Below the pieces are notes generated by a model. It made no database searches. It had not been told where the DNA came from and saw only the letters and a program-made list of their open reading frames with translations. A stretch of 63,649 bases of DNA, counting the filler, from Collodictyon triciliatum (taxonomy: Eukaryota): the NCBI GenBank assembly GCA_043381765.1. It is 5 parts of 5 records of this genome, joined end to end, with 100 filler letters (N's around TTAATTAATTAA, not from the genome) between each part and the next. Parts side by side here need not be neighbours in the genome. Positions count along the whole stretch, not along the records: positions 22,609 to 43,801 come from JBHJMP010000705.1; 4 more parts are not named here. One strand, given 5' to 3'. Positions 2,771 to 44,016 of the stretch are shown piece by piece. The position numbers and the translations under genes are program-made. Numbering within the stretch: the first letter of the stretch is position 1; each line of letters starts with the position of its first letter.

Positions 2771-3516
2771 CTGTTTCTTGTTGGATGCTCGGCGAATAAG
2801 CAACATGAGGTGGGATTAACATGCCAGTAGAGCACAAGAGGAGCTCGTCACGGGGAGAGAGAATGAAGCTTACCATCGCAAACAACTCACTGTTTAGTGT
2901 CTGCTTGACGAAAACTGTGCTACTTAAATCTAATCACGTAACTCTTCATAGCTTCGAGAGCGCAGCCTTTTCGAACCGACCGACCTACACAACCTTTTGT
3001 CNNNNNNNNNNNNNNNNNNNNNNNNNNNNNNNNNNNNNNNNNNNNNNNNNNNNNNNNNNNNNNNNNNNNNNNNNNNNNNNNNNNNNNNNNNNNNNNNNNN
3101 NNNNNNNNNNNNNNNNNNNNNNNNNNNNNNNNNNNNNNNNNNNNNNNNNNNNNNNNNNNNNNNNNNNNNNNNNNNNNNNNNNNNNNNNNNNNNNNNNNNN
3201 NNNNNNNNNNNNNNNNNNNNNNNNNNNNNNNNNNNNNNNNNNNNNNNNNNNNNNNNNNNNNNNNNNNNNNNNNNNNNNNNNNNNNNNNNNNNNNNNNNNN
3301 NNNNNNNNNNNNNNNNNNNNNNNNNNNNNNNNNNNNNNNNNNNNNNNNNNNNNNNNNNNNNNNNNNNNNNNNNNNNNNNNNNNNNNNNNNNNNNNNNNNN
3401 NNNNNNNNNNNNNNNNNNNNNNNNNNNNNNNTGCGACCATTCAGCCATAAAAAATGACTTGATATGGCATCTCATATTTTGTGCTCAAGTCTGATAATTC
3501 ACCAAACCTCAAACAG

Positions 3517-6772: not shown

Positions 6773-9530
6773 TCAATAAGATGACACCACGGAGCAGGTT
6801 TGGTTGGTCACATAAAGCAAGTTATCCATCCCAAAGGTGGCGAAGGTAGGACACGAGACTTTCCAGCTACACATGAGCGAGCCATCTTCTTTTAAAAAAT
6901 GGATAGCCTGGCCTGATGGATCTGTTAGAAGGATGCCATTATTGGGAGCTCGAGAGATGGAATGCAAATTGGTTGGGGGAATCGACCCAACGTCACTCAA
7001 ACGAGAAACCTTCAAAACCTTTCCATTCTCATCCAAAAATACTAGGACGACGTAGTGGAGAGCTAAACTATCTTCCGCGGCTTCATTCATGGCGAGATTT
7101 GTGGCTGAAACTATAACTTTGTTATCATCATTGACACAAACACCCATGGGCCATAAATCACAGGAAGGTAGAGTGATTATTGTTACTATCTGCCCATCAA
7201 TATCAAACTTTACAATCCTTTGTTCATCAAAGTCCACCACATACAGATTTCCTTTTCTATCATAAACAAGGCTTTGTGGATGGCGAAGTAACCCTGCTCC
7301 TAGTGTTTGCTTCAGTGTCCAATTGGCTTCAACAAGGGCATTTACTCTACTGTGATCTTTGGCTTCTTCGAAAACATAAACCCGGTGATCAGATATATCC
7401 GAAACAGCCAACCTGTTTGACGACATAGCCAAGAATGCAGGACGAGCTGAGCGTGGGAATGGGAGCTGCAAGGCGGCCCAATTGCCGGCCTTTTCAAGTC
7501 TCCAAACTTTGCAGGACGTCATATCGCAAACCATGATAAGACCCGTTCTTGGGTCCACGCTAATGTTCCCAGGCCTTGGGTGTTTGCCTGCTACGAGAGG
7601 TAAAGGATACTCAAGGCAAGGTCCAGGGCCTGCTTTAATCATGCGATATAATGGATAGAAGTTGTGAGTAACAATAATATCCAGCCTTGGTAATAATGAA
7701 CTTGACATATTCGGTCCGTGAGATAAATGCGATGTGTATTCTGACTCGGAAAAAGCAAGTTGTTCGGAGCGTGGTTCATGTGAACTTTTCGGCTCAATAA
7801 TGCTTTTGAGAGATACATGCGATGTGACATCCAGCTGGATACTGCTGCGCACAAATCGATGAATCTTCAACAGGTCATCTTCGGAATACTCCGAGAGCTG
7901 AGACGTGTCGACTACGGAGAGGATATCCAAGGCTGTTTGCAAGTGGTTTAAAGTGGCGGATAGGGTTTTCACACTCATCTTTGCTTTTTCATGCAACATG
8001 CCTTTGGTGGCGAGTTGCTATTGTTTTAAATAGCTTAGTTAATGAAAATGGTATGCACATGACAAGTTATCATAAAACTTACTCAAAAATCAATAGAATA
8101 TAATAATTTGTAACCTGGGCTTTTGATTCTGCCTCATTTTTTGTAATTTCATTGTTGAGACTTTCTACAATCATCCTCTGATTATCATAGTATTTTGAAG
8201 TGTATGAGGCTATACTCTCCAGAACAGCTTCTATCTGGAAAGACGACACAATTTTTTTAATCAAACTGTGGATTTATTAGAATACTATGTACCAATTGTT
8301 GTTTAATTTCGTGAAAATGTGTATTATACTTGAGATAACCCTATCTGAATATTTTCCTTGTTATCCTTGCACTGGGCCATCCTCTCTTCCAGTAGAGCGC
8401 TTCCATTTTTTAAGTCGGATATTATTTTTGACCAGGATTCATCAAAGCTGTCCAGAGTGTGATGCCTTTCGTCCTTGTTATGAGATGTAATACATACTCC
8501 GCATTTCAATGGGCTGGTGACACAATCGCGACATATATGTGTGAGTTTTTCTCCATGGAAAGCGCATACTTTCTTCCCTTGTGGTTTTGGTGACCCGGAG
8601 AGAGCCAGTACCGCCCTATGATATCACTTGTCTATTAATCCTCCAAGGGATAAAATTGGGAGCTTGGTACATATCTGTTTGAGAATATTAAAGGAAAAAA
8701 ACAACTGCGCCGAACAATACATGACAAAAAAAAATGTCAATTTAACTATTTCATGATAAATTGAAAGGGTTATTTTCTTTTACCATCGTTATCATCGTTA
8801 TCATTATCATGATAGACCAAGTCAATAATAACAATAGTAATAACAATAGTAATAACAATAGTAATAACAATAGTAATAACAATAGTAATAACAATAGTAA
8901 TAACAATAGTAATAACAATAGTAATAATAATAGTAATAAATAACAGCAATGAAAAACAAACAATAAAAAACAAAGAATAAAAAACAAAGAATAAAAAACA
9001 AAGAATAAAAAACAAAGAATAAAAAAACAAAGAATAAAAAAACAAAGAATAAAAAAACAAAGAATAGCAATAAAAACAGCAATAACAACAAGAATAATAA
9101 CAAGAATATACACAATAAAAGTAAAAAGAAACACAAACGTAACAAGATGACGCTTGGATATCCGTGAGGAGCGGTGTTCTGCCTCGCAAGTCGCGCACAG
9201 AAAGCCGCACCCGTTTTTGCACACAACAGAGGCCTCTGCTGCACACGAGTCCACCTGACACCCCGGCCCGGCAGCCGCAGCCGTTGCGTTCTGCTCAGCG
9301 ACTTTTTGTATGGGTCTCAGTATGCACGATCGCAGGGCGTTTGGATCGCCACCCGGGACGATCACTCTGTCCAAGCACAAAGGACAGACGATCTCGCTTC
9401 CGTCAGGGCCCGAGTCTCCGCCTTTCGAAAGAACGCCGATGCAAGTTGCGCAATAAACATCCCCGCATGGAAGAAGTTTCGGCGTTGTGTTCAGCTCTCC
9501 GCACATCGGACAGACAACGAGCAGATCCAT
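6773..9530 (-). CDS. TRIM-NHL-like protein: RING, two B-boxes, coiled coil, C-terminal NHL/6-bladed beta-propeller (putative E3 ligase)
   Basis: Exon 9530-9139: CPMC...LPCGDVYCATC...CPLC and CQVDSC...CKNGCGFLCATCEAEH...H. Exon ~8615-8330: CAFHGEKLTHICRDC...CGVCITSH...HH. Helical exon ~8235-8115. Last exon ~8017-6773 with NHL-like repeats (HPQSLVYDRKGNLYVVDFDEQRIVKFD, WPMGVCVNDDNKVIVS). Confidence 0.8.
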
Positions 9531-10228
9531 GAGTCTTCGTTTTCACGGGTTTAGAAAGGCTGGAGACAGAACGGAGTAAAGGAAACCGGAGTGCGACTTT
9601 TGATCGCGCTGCGAAAGAGATCTGCCAGAAGGGATCAAACCACGCCTTAGCTCCGAAACATAATGAACGACATTGGTTTTATTGTATAACTTTGCTGGTG
9701 TATTCTTTCCTCTTTCCGCCTGTTTCTATGAAGGTGGCGGCTGATGTGAATAAAACACGGTTGGATGCAACAACATTGATGCTAATAAGAATACAAATAA
9801 GACTTTTTTTTTCCTTGTGAACTGAAAAGATCTGAAGAAACAGCAGGTTCTCCTGTTGTAGTATTCTATTAAAGCATACCATCGCGATTAAAGCCAACCA
9901 CGTAGGTTTGCGGGTTGTGGGTTTGCAAAGGATTTCTTATTTTTATTTTCCTCCTTTTATTCGACTGGAAGATTTAGAATATCGTTTATTTAAGGCAGGT
10001 AACACGACAGAAGAGGAGAGGAAGCGACTCAGTTTTTTTTTTTTTTACCATGGAGGGAAATAGGAAGCAGAACACATTAGGCATGGAGAGGAAGAGAACA
10101 TGAGAAAAGGCCAACATAAGAACGAGTATATTTTGGCGTCCTGTTCACTTTTAATAAAAAAAAATGTATATAATTAGGGGGAAGCAAAAAGAGGAAGCAT
10201 TGTAGCCATTTCAATCAGAGCGAGGATT

Positions 10229-36977: not shown

Positions 36978-37780
36978 NNNNNNNNNNNNNNNNNNNNNNN
37001 NNNNNNNNNNNNNNNNNNNNNNNNNNNNNNNNNNNNNNNNNNNNNNNNNNNNNNNNNNNNNNNNNNNNNNNNNNNNNNNNNNNNNNNNNNNNNNNNNNNN
37101 NNNNNNNNNNNNNNNNNNNNNNNNNNNNNNNNNNNNNNNNNNNNNNNNNNNNNNNNNNNNNNNNNNNNNNNNNNNNNNNNNNNNNNNNNNNNNNNNNNNN
37201 NNNNNNNNNNNNNNNNNNNNNNNNNNNNNNNNNNNNNNNNNNNNNNNNNNNNNNNNNNNNNNNNNNNNNNNNNNNNNNNNNNNNNNNNNNNNNNNNNNNN
37301 NNNNNNNNNNNNNNNNNNNNNNNNNNNNNNNNNNNNNNNNNNNNNNNNNNNNNNNNNNNNNNNNNNNNNNNNNNNNNNNNNNNNNNNNNNNNNNNNNNNN
37401 NNNNNNNNNNNNNNNNNNNNNNNNNNNNNNNNNNNNNNNNNNNNNNNNNNNNNNNNNNNNNNNNNNNNNNNNNNNNNNNNNNNNNNNNNNNNNNNNNNNN
37501 NNNNNNNNNNNNNNNNNNNNNNNNNNNNNNNNNNNNNNNNNNNNNNNNNNNNNNNNNNNNNNNNNNNNNNNNNNNNNNNNNNNNNNNNNNNNNNNNNNNN
37601 NNNNNNNNNNNNNNNNNNNNNNNNNNNNGATAAAAAAAAAGTGTAGAAAAAGTAATCGTCTGACGAAACATTAATCATTTTTTCTCCAAAAAAAAGAAGA
37701 AAAAAGAGGAAGTTATTATTCATGACATGAGCGTGCGATTTCCAAGTTCCTTTGTAGATGCAAACTAGACAAATTAGTCT

Positions 37781-40700
37781 TCACGAGATGTTCGCTTCAG
37801 GTTTGCGTGGAATCATCAAACGGTCTCTGCTCTTTGGTCGAGAGGCTTTTAAGGCGGCAGTTGGGGCGGATGGTTGAAACGTGTCCTTTCCATGACTGCC
37901 ACATATAATTTGACAGGTGGATTATACAAATGGTGTTTTTCTCTTTTCTTTTTCTTTCTCTATTCCTTTTTCCTTTTTCCTTTTTCTTCTATCAATTCCG
38001 TCTATTATTGAATGTAAAAGAAAACCCATTTTCTTGCTCTGTGGGGCGGTCTGTATCGGAGGATGTTGGCCTTGACCGCCCCTGCGAGTTGGGCCTTGAC
38101 TTTCCTTGGGATTGAGGACGTGACCTTCCTCGGGACTCTGGTCGAAGAGCGAGAGGTATTTCAGACCGGGATGACCGAGAGAAGCTTGGTCGTTGAGAGC
38201 CTGGGGAAGAGAGGGCGCTCGTTGGAGGGGATGAAGCGTACGACAGCTCAAGCGAATCCTTTTTTTTTTTTTTCAATAGTAGATTATCGAGTGAATAACA
38301 TGTTTTTGTTACTTCTTGGTACTTTCATAGTCTTTATGCATATTTTATTTTCAATGTTTAATCTTGGGAAGATATTCACAACAAAAATATAGAAGTTGGT
38401 GTTTGGTTTGGTTCATGGGCATTCTTTTTCTGCTTTATATTCACTTAAAGAGTACAGAATGGAATTTTTTATATCAATTTCATTCCTTACAATTTTTGAT
38501 CGGAAGGAATCTGGAAAAATATTGGACGATTGGTCTGATGTCCTTGATATCTAAATTCAAAGCATTCGTGGGTTTGATATGATTATTTTTTTTTAAAAAA
38601 AAAACACCTATTATTTTGCTAAATTTTGCAATCTACCCTGTAAAATATGATTTATTTCTATGATACCAACTCCAAAAAGGAAGCATATATATTCACGGTA
38701 CACTACACTTCAAGCCAAGATTCAATTCAGAGCATTACACTTTTTCTATTACGAAGGGCCATGACTGGGTTTCCACAAAAGACTTCATTAACACCTATAC
38801 GTTAAACAGTTAGATTATAATAATAATAATAAAAAAAAGTATGAGCATAATTCACTACTTTATTTTCATTATATTTAATACAAAATGCGATAATTATGAG
38901 AATATAGACCATGAGTTAAGTTACTGCTGGCGTCGTCTTCAACGGCAAGTGAATCTGAAAAAAAAAATGAGAATGGCGATATCATTTATGTAATGCTTTC
39001 TGTTAAAATTTGAAAAGCAAAAGCAAAAGCAAAAAATAAAACAAATAAATAAATAGATAAAAATTCCTACTCGGTAACGCTTGTAATGAAAGCCCTTCGA
39101 TTAGAGCACGAGTGGAAACAACTGCGAAAGCAATAAAACATCAATTAACAGTATGACTAAGTCAACTATTTGACATTTTAACTAAAGCTCGCTCAGATTA
39201 GTGTAAATTCCTACTTAGATGGTAACATATAGACAAACCATATGGCTGCATATCGCATGACTCTGCCCCAGAGCCTCGTTCAGCTTCGACACTGAATGCC
39301 GTGGATGTGCGTGGTCTTCCAGCGCTGCTGCTTGGTCTGTTTGAAAGAGATGTGGCGGGTCTTGTTGCGGTTGTTGGTCGTCTTTAAAAGATCAAGAAAA
39401 TTTGAAAACAAAACAAAACAAAACAAGACAAAACAAAACAAAACAAAACAAAAATCAAAAATCAAAAATCAAAAATCAAAAATCAAAAATCAAAAATCAA
39501 AAATCAAAAATCAAAAATCAAAACAAAACGTGATGTTAGTAAGTTCGATTAGCTTTTTATTTGTCTTACTTTCTGGGATGTAAATAATATTATCAAGAGC
39601 CACACCAAAGACCACGGGTACACTTTTTTGCATATGATAAAAAAATGTGAAAAATAGGACCAGCATGGATTGTATTCTACACAAACCCAGATGTCGTGGG
39701 TCTCTCGAGGGGCGCATTTCTTGACGGAGAAAGTATAGAAAAGTATAGAAAAGTATAGAAAAGTATAGAAAAGTATAGAAAAGTATAGAAAAGTATAGAA
39801 AAGTATAGAAAAGTATAGAAAAGAAAGGAGCATTCAGTCCCAATTACAAACGATTACATTAAAGGTATCTTAAAGAATCATAACTGGACTGCTAAGTGAA
39901 AATTTGATCAGGAAATTTTGGTGATGATATAGAGTTGCTGATGAACTACGAATATGAAAGTCAATCTTACCCGAAAGGGGACATATCAATGGTCGACTCG
40001 ATGAAAGTAAATTTTTTTGTTATGCTAAATATTTGTTGAAAATTATATTTTTAAAAAAATTCAAAGAAAGGACGTATTTCATTAAAATTTAATAAAAGTT
40101 GGCTAATTCAAGTATTAGACCACTGCATATTCAACTTGATAAAACTCAAATAGGAAAACAATTTACCTCTCAATACTTTGTTCCTCCTCCTCATCTCTTG
40201 CATATTTTTCCATGACCTCTTTAATTTCACTTTCTTCCTCTGTATTCCCCTATAAAACAGAATTTTTATAAACCACATGAAGACGACGAGGAAAATGATG
40301 AAAATAACAATTTTTTTTAAAAATCCTTTTTTGCCACATGAAATTGAATATCCACTTCGGCTTTATCAGCTGGAATCACTTCGATATCGTCCAGAGTGTC
40401 TAATGTCTATAAAATAGAATTATCAAATCATAAAGTTTAGTTATATTTGTCATAAAATTAGAAGGTGAATGAAGGAAAACATTGATAGTATCTTGAAATA
40501 TAGAGCAAGTGCATATGGTTAGTCAGAACTCACAGGAATCGAGCGACAAACAATTATTCGGTAGAATGGGATTTCTTTGTCGGCCATAATTAGAGGGGGG
40601 TTTCAATAAGATTAAAAAATTTTCACAAAATGGGTTATCCGCACACAAAAATTCATGGGAAGTGCATCATCAGCCACAGTTAAAAAATTCTGAAGAAAAG

Positions 40701-42171
40701 CATACGACTGATGGGATTTCCCTCCAGGGTTAAAGCGTTCAAGTTGGCACATCCCGCTGATTTTTGATATATTATATTTCAAGTATTCAGTACTGGTCAA
40801 AGGAAAAAAATATTTGGACATATGGGAGGGGTAGTGTACCTAGAAATTCGATTGTTTCTATGCATCGAATATGATTTCTGTTGGACGTCACAGAAGAAAG
40901 AAAGATATATTTATTAATAATCCCTTACAGAAAACAAAAAGATATTACATTTTTTTGGGCCCGATGGATGTAATTAATTCTTTAAAATTTTCAGCACTCT
41001 CTGATTTTTATATCACATGTAAACTAAGATAAAAACGGAATAAAGAAACCCTTCTAAATCCAACAACTGAAGGTTATCAAGTCCGCTGAGCGGACTAAGG
41101 TCACATATTTTGTTGAAAGAAAGATACAATTCCTTCAGATCTATTTATTGATTTATTGAATTTCAAAAATAATCCAAATGATATCACAGCAAGTATAAAA
41201 AAATATATAAAAATTCAAGCGAGAATGACAAGTATCTGAAAATATGGAATGATACAGGATTCATCATGAAAAAGCTTTACTTGGTATCGATAAGACTCCT
41301 TCTAGATCAACGACTTCGCACCGAGAGAGCCACAAGACCTCCAGATGAATAAGAGATGTACCCAAATGTCTTTGAAAAAGAGATGCAATTGATAACAATT
41401 TTGTATAAAATTTTTTCATTCTCTTTTTGGCCATATAGGCGAGTAAAATTGAAAAACCTTAGGCTCGATATTTTACTGTTATTCAACTTTAATTCTTTCA
41501 GGTTCGGAACATAATCACCTAAATATATATATTGTTTCAGTGCTCTAAAAGTAGGGTAACGTTTTGAAGAAAAAGAAATTGGCTCCGAAAAAAAATCTTA
41601 TAGCTTTTCGGTATTTAAGAATGGAAAAATATGTACATATTTAAATTTTAGAAAAAAAAAATTATAATGATGGTCATGTGAAAACGATTTCAAATTAATC
41701 AGAGAGTGCAGCTCACACACACGTGTGCGCAATAAAGACAGACCAAATCTTCCGAGAGAGTTAAATGTGGTATCTACAAATATCTCCAGGAACCGAACAA
41801 TATTCAGGTCATGATTATTTGATAGTTCCCTCTGCGTGAGAATTTGAGCAAAAAAAAAATGGTTTCAGATAAAAGAGTAAGTAACAACATCAATTCTTAA
41901 TGGATATGTAATAATCGATTTCTAAAATGAAACTGGTTTTTTTTCCATGTGAAAGAGTGAGCGTCGCTTGCAAGTGAAAGCTACTTACTAGTCTGCTCTC
42001 TGATAGATATTCCTCCAGGACAACCTCATCCAAATCTTCCAAACCAAAGTCATCGGGTGGTCTCGTGGGCGTGGCTGGCTTTGAGGGTTTTATCACTGGG
42101 GCAGAGCGAGCAAGAGGCGTAATGACGATGTCCCTGGGGACGAAAGCTGATTGTGCATCAAGATTGCCCAT
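37781..42171 (-). CDS. LRRC56: LRRC56/ODA8 (outer dynein arm assembly/transport factor), multi-exon
   Basis: EEYLSESRL|RELSNNHDLNIVRFLEIFVDTTFNSLGRFG|DYVPNLKELKLNNSKISSLR|HLGTSLIHLEVLWLSRC...LKELYLSFNKICDLSPLSGLDNLQLLDLEG closely follows the LRRC56 N-terminal LRR. Later CGNPVMALR and RPxS/T-rich tail. Both ends approximate. Confidence 0.85.
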
Positions 42172-43259
42172 AGAGGAATCTATTCATTGTCAATATAATT
42201 AGATTGGCTCATTCACCAAACCATCACAACTTTTACCAATGTTAGATTTTAACTAAGAGTTATGATGTGTTTATCATCACAGTGTTCAATAACTCAAATA
42301 TTGGAAATAAAGCGTGGGCATAAGTAGACCAGTAAATGAGTAGGTGATTATGTATGCATATATGGCTTGCTAGTATGCACACGAATGTTTGAATATGGAA
42401 TAATATTGTGATTTATAGAACAAAGATATATACACCGCGAAGACGGGCGCATCGCGACGCTCTGCGTTGACTTCATGTGCTACGTAATCCCTGTATGTTC
42501 AGTCTGAACGATAGCAAAAGAGAAACCCCGTTAGACATGATTAACACTTGTGATATATTTTCTAGCGGCATGTGTATATTTCGCGAATATCCTCTTCTTT
42601 TTTACATAAAAAAACGACTCAAAAGCTGGGCTATGTAAAACCAAGATTACGCCTCGTAACATATTGGTAGGGGGGATTATTCGGTTATTGCGTATTGTAC
42701 TATTTTCGCTTAGTTTTGCTATTCTTTCTTTTTGGCTTCCTTGTTTGGTTCATTCAGCTCATAAACATCCTTTAAAAAAAGAAAGAAAGAAAGAAAATAA
42801 TCGTAATGCCATAGAATACATGAAGCTTTCAACCCTGTCGGAAATACCTCCAGCTTGAAACAAAATGGCCCGGGAGGTTATTTTGTTGAATGGGTTTACA
42901 ATTATCACTGAATAAGTGAATTAAATAAAGAAAAACTCTTGTCGACCAACCTGAGCTTTTTTTTATTTTCTTTTTTAGTCATAGGAAACCATATCTTGTT
43001 CGATTTGCGTACCTCAGAATAGAAAAAAATACGGCAAGTCTTCCAGGGCGCCTCCAAGTATATGATCGGCCGTTCTTCCTTCTTCTTTCTTCCTTTTGCT
43101 GTTTGTTGTTGTGATCCTTTTTTTCTTTTCTGATTGATGACTGACCCAAGTTTGATTGGAAAATGAAAACAGAGGAATCGTTGTTCCACATTTGCTTTTC
43201 AAATAAGGCATGTGCAAAAAATTATTGTTTTTTTCTCTTTTCTTTTGCATAAAGGGGCA

Positions 43260-43367
43260 ACCAATTCTTTCGATTGGTAAACCAGGTGCGCTAGTATCCA
43301 AGGTCTCACCACCATTTTCACAAAGATTGTGTAGTGGTGAAGGCTGCCAGGAAAGACCCAACAGCCT
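43260..43367 (-). ncRNA. Candidate Fanzor omega-RNA scaffold (three stem-loops right after the Fanzor stop)
   Basis: Minus-strand RNA: AGGCUGUUGGG-UCUUU-CCUGGCAGCCU (43367-43341); UCACCACUA-CACAA-UCU-UUGUG-AAAA-UGGUGGUGA (43340-43306); ACCAAUC-GAAA-GAAUUGGU (43278-43260). The G-U wobbles and GAAA tetraloop work only on the Fanzor-sense strand. Confidence 0.55.
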
Positions 43368-43801
43368 ATTTTTTTTTAGAGAAAGGTGTATGCATATTTG
43401 GAAGGATTAAAACAACTTTCTTGAGTATATTTTTAGCGCTGATAAAGTCCCTTGTCAAGAATAAACTTTGTTTGCTTTCTGAGCGATTGCATTCCTTACA
43501 CATGAGACATATTTACACCTTTTTTATATTTCCTTTCAGTGTCATATATTCCAGTTCTTTTTCGCAGTTGCAACACATCTTGGAGGTTCTAAATTCATCT
43601 ACGCTAACTATTTCAAAACGTTTGGATAGTATTTTTCGTTACCCTCTTCCGATTGTTGGCGTAAAATGGTTCATCAGAGATTTTCTGCTCCAGTCTCCAT
43701 ACGCCAGTACAACATCCTTGCCAAATGTCTTTTCGATTCGGTCCGTAAACAACTGTTCACTTCTTTTTGTATTAACATATTGTCTCCATCTCATCTTTCG
43801 A
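43366..43801 (-). mobile_element. Fanzor1/TnpB-family RNA-guided nuclease, C-terminal RuvC/zinc-finger part, disrupted by two in-frame TAA; 5' part cut by scaffold end
   Basis: One uninterrupted-by-introns frame from 43800: RKMRWRQYVNTKRSEQLFTDRIEKTFGKDVVLAYGDWSRKSLMNHFTPTIGRG*RKILSKRFEIVSVDEFRTSKMCCNCEKELEYMTLKGNIKKV*ICLMCKECNRSESKQSLFLTRDFISAKNILKKVVLILPNMHTPFSKKK*. Motifs GDWS, PT.G.G, VDEFRTSK.C..C, C..C, RD..SA.NI. Confidence 0.88.
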
Positions 43802-43901
43802 NNNNNNNNNNNNNNNNNNNNNNNNNNNNNNNNNNNNNNNNNNNNTTAATTAATTAANNNNNNNNNNNNNNNNNNNNNNNNNNNNNNNNNNNNNNNNNNN
43901 N
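43802..43901. other. Artificial scaffold spacer
   Basis: TTAATTAATTAA at 43846-43857 between N runs. Confidence 0.95.
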
Positions 43902-43914
43902 AAAAACAAAAAAA

Positions 43915-44016
<102 letters not shown>

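Follow-up and report, generated by a model that had tools for sequence, protein, structure and literature searches.

Fanzors are eukaryotic RNA-guided nucleases that are wanted as small genome editors. For the Fanzor1 type, the available text of Bao and Jurka (2013) gives a C-terminal motif, [TS][TS]-x-x-[C4 zinc finger]-x(5,50)-RD, as well as transposon-borne Fanzor1 genes with Helitron, Mariner, IS4, Sola, and MuDr carriers. A further Fanzor1 criterion places the RuvC-I Asp 125–275 residues upstream of the TS motif. Among these carriers, Helitrons are described there as having a 3′ subterminal hairpin, a CTRR-3′ end (Helitron1), and a 5′-TC end, and as depending on RepHel (Bao and Jurka 2013, in the portion available). 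In the accessible portion of Jiang et al. (2023), the Fanzor active site is described as one in which Gly or Pro takes the place of the canonical RuvC-II Glu and an alternative Glu lies approximately 45 residues further on. Excerpts of Saito et al. (2023) name D383, E541, and D606 as the metal ligands of SpuFz1 and state that in TnpB and in GtFz1 the omegaRNA overlaps the sequence that encodes the C-terminus. A link between Fanzors and giant viruses has also been published, as far as the available parts of two of these papers show (Bao and Jurka 2013; Saito et al. 2023).

Here, we describe a locus in a stretch of eukaryotic DNA of 63,649 nucleotides, the whole of which is referred to as the window. 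The locus, on the minus strand at 43246–43800, is very probably what remains of the 3′ end of a Fanzor1 mobile element that lacks introns and occurs in multiple copies; this copy has decayed, and its host is a eukaryote.

Reading frame and coordinates of the remnant

The window contained four spacers composed of N44 + TTAATTAATTAA + N44, located at 22509–22608, 43802–43901, 54843–54942, and 59282–59381; it therefore comprises at least five separate scaffolds, and adjacency across the spacers is meaningless. The Fanzor1 remnant was found at the right end of the scaffold spanning 22609–43801, where translation of the minus strand from 43800 to 43369 gave a frame of 144 codons reading RKMRWRQYVN...GDWS...PTIGRG*...VDEFRTSKMCCNC...CKEC...TRDFISAKNI...KKK*. 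The other two minus-strand frames at the locus were dense in stops. An initial annotation, made from the sequence, had reported a minus-strand frame of ~145 codons with the motifs GDWS, PTIGRG, VDEFRTSKMCCNC, CKEC, and TRDFISAKNI, broken by two in-frame TAA codons (43641–43639 and 43515–43513) and cut at the scaffold end; all of the motifs, both stops, and the cut were seen again. The extent it had given, 43366–43801, was right as to the frame itself and wrong as to the start, which lies at 43800 and not at 43801. A third in-frame stop, TAG, occupies 43368–43366.

The frame ended abruptly at 43801, where it met the spacer. As the scaffold ends inside the ORF, roughly three quarters of the gene, on its 5′ side, are unassembled, and the remnant corresponds to about the last quarter. 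Searches with tblastn and blastn retrieved no second Fanzor1 copy in the window. The features of the locus are as follows.

43369–43800, minus strand: Fanzor1 coding remnant of 144 codons, with the pre-RuvC-II region, YGDWS, E69, the C4 zinc ribbon, and the RuvC-III RD
43639–43641, minus strand: premature stop 1 (TAA, codon 54), a sense codon in relatives and other copies
43513–43515, minus strand: premature stop 2 (TAA, codon 96), a sense codon in relatives and other copies
43366–43368, minus strand: premature stop 3 (TAG), past which homology to the best relative, P0002, continues
43318–43365, minus strand: run-on tail of the ancestral frame, 15 codons, closed by TGA at 43320–43318 and overlapping hairpins 1 and 2
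43246–43367, minus strand: structured 3′ tail with three hairpins, from folding and coverage by other copies
43245–43246, no strand: approximate 3′ boundary of the repeated element, placed by eye from 30-letter loose ends
43802–43901, no strand: artificial, non-biological spacer (N44 + TTAATTAATTAA + N44) at the end of the scaffold, read from the sequence

Assignment to Fanzor1

The fragment translation (P0001), in which X replaced the two TAA codons, was compared with solved structures and matched the Fanzor1 proteins of Parasitella parasitica (PpFz1, 9cf0; E = 1e-10) and Spizellomyces punctatus (SpuFz1, 8gkh; E = 2.2e-5), while that of Guillardia theta (GtFz1) gave E = 0.053. A profile of 18 sequences (alignment A1), consisting of the fragment and 17 relatives, mostly full-length, matched PpFz1, SpuFz1, and GtFz1 over nearly their full length, at 3.8e-84, 1.4e-79, and 3.9e-72, respectively. 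The profile had five PDB matches at E ≤ 0.01, the other two being weak rows for LaTranC (~4e-3). The profile matches to solved Fanzor1 make the family assignment secure, and 43369–43800 corresponds to the C-terminus of a Fanzor1 nuclease. The order RuvC-II / C4 zinc ribbon / RuvC-III, which the initial annotation had proposed for a Fanzor1-type C-terminus, was borne out by the PDB matches and alignment A1.

An exhaustive HMMER search of 1.84 billion representative proteins returned 1502 relatives at E ≤ 1e-3, 332 of which were found at E ≤ 1e-10, and the long matches (~590–720 aa) aligned to the fragment at their C-terminus. The best relative, P0002 (648 aa), was 67% identical to the fragment across all 144 residues without a gap. 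Its E value of 3e-56, together with the 1502 relatives, places the match far beyond chance. Local Pfam gave no match on P0002, for which PF26935 is a precomputed annotation. On the fragment itself, PF07282 (Cas12f1-like TNB) scored 20.9 bits, below the cut-off of 26.3.

The family has a RuvC and zinc-ribbon core in common with prokaryotic TnpB (ISDra2 type) and Fanzor2 and, by homology, would share their RNA-guided mechanism. It differs from them in the replacement of the RuvC-II Glu and in its scores: the NCBIfam guided_TnpB model (NF040570) reached 18 bits on the fragment, over the last 54 model positions only, against a curated cut-off of 100, so that membership in prokaryotic TnpB was not obtained with this model, and none of the five PDB matches of the A1 profile at E ≤ 0.01 was to a chain named Fanzor2.

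Catalytic residues

Twelve columns were invariant in A1 (R1, S14, G35, W37, P48, G53, E69, S73, C76, R117, D118, and N124), and the window copy retained all 12, which indicates that it is little decayed apart from its stops. Numbered along the chain of the MBP fusion, the three SpuFz1 metal ligands are residues 777, 935, and 1000, in each case 394 higher. Window residue E69 (VDEFRTS) aligned with E541 and D118 (TRDF) with D606, and the nearly invariant DPG of the full-length relatives aligned with D383, the RuvC-I Asp; the window copy's own position for this Asp falls beyond the scaffold end.

G35 (YGDWS) and E69 (DEFRTS), both invariant in A1, are 34 residues apart. G35 is the place of the canonical RuvC-II Glu according to the description available in Jiang et al. 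(2023), rather than by alignment with TnpB. The rearranged Fanzor1 catalytic site that had been read from G-D-W plus the Glu of DE.RTS thus stands, on the invariant Gly and the alignment of E69 with E541. The motif of Bao and Jurka was also complete, as T72-S73-K-M-C76..C79...C101..C104 followed after 12 residues by R117-D118, in columns that were invariant or nearly so in A1.

Compared with solved Fanzor1 proteins (9cf0, 8gkh, and 9cer), the locus is alike in its D/E/D positions, in the Gly in place of the RuvC-II Glu, and in the C4 zinc ribbon, but identity is low, and three stops and a truncation set the window copy apart. The full-length relatives, at 620–650 aa, are about the size of the 633-aa SPu-1-1p of Spizellomyces given in the available text of Bao and Jurka (2013).

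Repetition and the 3′ boundary of the element

Logan contigs from four public runs, each of a different study (X1, X2, X3, and X5), were compared with positions 42000–43801. Contigs with 85–99% likeness numbered 18, 5, 62, and 131, respectively, almost all of them within 43266–43801. Contig depth was confined to ~43220–43801; over 42183–43158 it fell to zero in X1, X2, and X5 and almost to zero in X3. Loose contig ends were found at 43266 (two in X1, three in X3, and three in X5), 43268 (one in X1), and 43278 (one in X2). Past these ends, approximately 20 letters were still window-like by eye, comprising a short hairpin whose stem letters varied by copy and then a C-rich stretch; beyond ~43246, the flanks of the other copies were unlike the window and unlike one another. 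Since the flanks diverge after these ~20 extra letters, the end of the element was placed near 43246 with some uncertainty, the boundary being approximate as it was read by eye from the 30-letter loose ends of short Logan contigs.

The Fanzor1 element is multi-copy. Contigs with differing flanks came from all four runs, and three NCBI-sourced fragments (P0166, P0012, and P0119), on contigs of 513–582 nt, were 76–80% identical to the window copy; the multi-copy family supposed in the initial annotation is therefore supported. Two of the three fragments were visibly frameshifted, and frameshifted fragments on contigs of this length are as expected of a repeat that breaks assemblies. In being multi-copy and non-autonomous-looking, with the Fanzor1 ORF alone, the element resembles the transposon-borne Fanzor1 genes described in the available portions of Bao and Jurka (2013).

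Two short metagenome contigs extended with the window's own flank (43167–43359 in X1 and 43255–43358 in X2) and may stem from a relative that has this locus. This insertion, or a longer sub-family, may occur in environmental samples. No contig bridged the ~43245 junction into the unique flank beyond ~80 nt (X1, record 1). None of the public runs listed for the stretch contained half or more of its words, and none was an RNA run. In X5, one contig covered 42000–42182 with two differences, at a depth of 12 versus 200–566 over the element, where contig depth does not equal copy number; this suggests that run X5 contains the host or a near relative. Around the locus, inverted terminal repeats were sought and only low-complexity pairs were obtained, the left end of the element and any transposase lying outside the window.

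Relatives in giant viruses and metagenomes

Relatives were sought in IMG/VR and the JGI metagenomes by means of conserved peptides from a narrower alignment (A2). IMG/VR yielded 267 related loci, many on giant-virus MAG contigs, the best of which showed 56% identity and lay on a 254-kb contig, and the JGI metagenomes yielded at least 355 relatives. The ORFs of the relatives were single open frames, mostly of 590–700 codons. In the Atlas, P0002 adjoined clusters that were 92–100% Viruses, mainly Nucleocytoviricota, with PF26935 (DUF8286). The closest labelled relatives of the window copy are on giant-virus contigs. The host or its clade may already be included in published lists of Fanzor hosts.

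Sixty-two chosen rows went into a quick maximum-likelihood tree: besides the window fragment, these were 29 representatives and, with near-duplicates removed, 32 locus ORFs of at least 550 aa. The window fragment grouped with P0002, P0012, P0008, and P0009 (SH-aLRT 99), and this group was sister (99) to a clade with the viral contigs L001 and L002, in a tree that was midpoint-rooted and had most rows unlabelled. Given this rooting, the few taxon labels, and a window row that fills 23% of the alignment columns, the tree gives no direction of transfer. Overall, the window copy resembles the giant-virus Fanzor1 genes (‘transposase’ clusters, PF26935 DUF8286) in identities of up to 56%, in the intact single-exon ORFs of ~590–700 aa found on the viral side, and in the sister position in the tree, but its clade stands on a long stem of its own, and the 30-nt terminal motif of the viral clade is not in the window.

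These relationships raise the question of whether the remnant is a piece of a large integrated giant-virus segment rather than of a small transposon. The 267 IMG/VR loci with a best identity of 56%, the Atlas clusters of 92–100% Viruses, and the sister clade with viral MAG genes all point in that direction; however, the likeness among copies stops ~75–120 nt past the ORF and the flanks differ among copies. Moreover, the 6 kb next to the element (37629–43245) contained short interrupted ORFs, a weak LRR_4 hit (E = 0.02), and no viral gene, and we consider a viral segment unlikely. That weak hit is also all that was recovered of the LRRC56 gene which the initial annotation had named as a neighbour, and the name was not retained. 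The small multi-copy mobile element remains the preferred reading.

Three premature stops and the state of the copy

At codon 54, the site of the first TAA, the 17 relatives in A1 had Leu (12), Met (2), Ile (2), or Phe (1), and at codon 96, the site of the second, they had His (11), Phe (4), Tyr (1), or Arg (1); the closer fragments had Leu at codon 54 and Tyr or Phe at codon 96. At 43640, every covering contig differed from the window (4/4 in X1, 4/4 in X3, and 12/12 in X5), and at 43513, the single covering contig of X3 differed, as did 201.2 of a depth of 206.8 in X5. The differences at both positions restore a sense codon. The TAG had been taken for the natural stop, a view overturned by tblastn of P0002, which crossed it and aligned through to 43327 (158 residues, 64.6% identity), in a frame that continues to TGA at 43320–43318. 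P0002 and P0165 have Gln at the TAG site, followed by Ala-Val-Gly, and position 43368 differed from the window in 142.8 of a depth of 217.6 in X5, in 26.5 of 48 in X3, and in less in X1 and X2. Since homology runs past the TAG to the TGA, the TAG is a third premature stop.

The window copy is a pseudogene, carrying three nonsense changes in a frame that is nowhere shifted. The report that the remnant is broken by stops was accordingly sustained, the two TAA stops being private to the window copy when compared with other copies and relatives. An open frame for an active nuclease was absent from the window copy, which has three premature stops and lacks its 5′ part.

Each stop is one letter from the sequence of the other copies, and the copy sits at a scaffold break inside a repeat, both of which would be expected if the real copy were open and errors in assembly or sequencing had arisen where a repeat collapsed. 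Three independent stop-creating errors within 480 nt are nevertheless improbable, and sister fragments from an NCBI-sourced assembly are likewise frameshifted or truncated; we hold an artefactual origin of the stops to be decidedly unlikely. It is highly improbable that the segment is a contaminant from a virus or another organism, misjoined to host DNA: it does lie at a scaffold end and its relatives are common in freshwater metagenomes, but 37629–43801 is gap-free sequence, and run X5 has both the exon-like 42000–42182, with two differences, and many copies of the element. That the gene is intact in a host that, like ciliates and some other protists, gives TAA (and TAG) an amino-acid meaning is scarcely credible, for although all three in-frame stops are TAA or TAG, the run-on frame ends with TGA, and the genome is AT-rich, the other copies have ordinary sense codons at the TAA sites, one reassigned meaning of TAA cannot fit both Leu and His/Phe/Tyr, and host-like ORFs of 404–669 codons elsewhere in the window are stop-free under the standard code in DNA of 35–43% GC. 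The stops are thus best read as nonsense changes in a dead copy of the mobile element.

Structured 3′ tail

A 133-nt tail folded at −42.3 kcal/mol (z = −2.68), with 4 of 200 shuffles folding as well, and a wider stretch around it gave z = −2.55. It forms three hairpins, at 43341–43367, 43306–43340, and 43256–43283, the first two of which overlap the old ORF tail. The tail is shared by other copies to ~43266, with looser likeness to ~43246. Four variants were listed in hairpin 2, one located in the loop, two keeping their pairs, and one breaking a pair unless compensated. Rfam gave no match at E ≤ 1 on 40000–43801, and comparison of the tail with 160 relative loci showed DNA likeness only within the coding part (43421–43801); the comparisons of the tail covered Rfam and these loci.

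By analogy with the 3′ structure of the sister clade, the ~120 nt after the TAG in the window are most likely an omegaRNA scaffold and/or a transposon 3′ end. In that clade, which comprises viral and metagenomic loci, the ORF tail plus ~70 nt gave a consensus of 46 pairs, 19 of them compensatory, and the likeness stopped abruptly at the element end. The structured region is found at L001:3419–3574 and in the matching parts of L002, L086, L087, L091, and L092, and the protein tail EKVGQSVDF is conserved across it, as expected if the RNA constrains the coding sequence. A covariance model of this structure was considered for the window tail and rejected, as the sequence and hairpin layout differ.

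A terminal motif of ~30 nt, 93–97% identical, was present just 3′ of the Fanzor1 ORF in 68 of the 160 fetched loci (e.g., L001:3540–3574), including loci whose proteins are only ~40% identical to the window fragment. Locus L091 carried 32-nt inverted repeats with 97% complementarity (522–553 and 3330–3361), the right one located 15 nt after the stop, and the 30-nt motif is the right arm of this repeat (L091:3330–3361). An end sequence that is constant across diverged nucleases is a candidate for a shared transposase site or an omegaRNA 3′ module and deserves a look.

The loose ends of the other copies read CTAG (three) or CTTG (one), followed by T in all three with visible flank, and have the subterminal hairpin at 43256–43283. 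The hairpin, and the resemblance of CTAG/CTTG + T to CTRR-3′, are likenesses to the Helitron carriers, from which the locus differs in that the window copy has TATG and then C at the same place and in that a RepHel gene was not seen. The end recalls that of a Helitron, a likeness which, coming from four 30-letter loose ends, may serve as a lead only.

Genomic context

Genes with introns lie at a distance of 1–2 kb from the element. The window is very rich throughout in microsatellites and short tandem units, and many assembly gaps fall inside them. The scaffold following the element's own starts with a run of well over 100 T (43902–44060, on the minus strand as read). Several open frames elsewhere in the window had recognisable features. 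Two large exon-like ORFs were found at 6773–9542 on the minus strand; one has, by eye, a Cys-rich, RING/B-box-like stretch, and the Atlas look-alikes of the other were NHL-repeat clusters, mostly metazoan and commonest in Mollusca. The likeness of a host ORF on another scaffold to metazoan TRIM-NHL clusters (Atlas 0.90–0.94) is a weak lead. A 404-codon open frame at 21128–22342 on the minus strand appears by eye to be ion-channel-like, with the TVGYGD signature of a potassium-channel filter, and 46330–47439 on the plus strand carries what reads as a protein kinase catalytic domain (HRDLKLENIL...DFGLS), split by a microsatellite and an assembly gap.

Proposed explanation and implications

In the proposed explanation, intact members of the family would encode a nuclease of ~620–650 aa which, by homology to solved Fanzor1, would bind an omegaRNA produced by transcription of the element's 3′ end and cut double-stranded DNA at a single RuvC site formed by the RuvC-I Asp, the relocated Glu, and the RuvC-III Asp. 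The window copy would be unable to make this protein, having three premature stops and roughly its first three quarters unassembled, a loss that a scaffold break within the repeat would explain. The ~120 nt after the TAG, which overlap the old ORF tail and form three hairpins, would serve as the omegaRNA scaffold and/or the transposon end. The analysis establishes the identity of the copy, its catalytic residues, its stops, the multiplicity of copies, and the approximate boundary; from these we infer the RNA, the type of transposon, and the activity that intact copies would have as nucleases.

A bolder reading, which we regard as possible but doubtful, is that the window copy is a wreck left by a living Fanzor1 family that has passed from one to the other between giant viruses and a freshwater eukaryote with partly metazoan-like genes and is now spreading in the latter, with its own three-hairpin omegaRNA and a Helitron-like 3′ end in contrast to the 30-nt terminal motif common to the viral relatives. 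If this were true, intact copies of ~650 aa would be a new compact, eukaryote-adapted RNA-guided nuclease whose guide RNA is already delimited.

The window copy is genuine but, as one more member of a family already well described, rather ordinary; dead and truncated, it is valuable as a pointer to the family rather than as a functional gene. Any new Fanzor clade whose 3′ RNA region has been delimited provides useful raw material. The locus is also an example of a Fanzor1 lineage common to giant-virus and cellular genomes and, as such, bears on how such genes travel.
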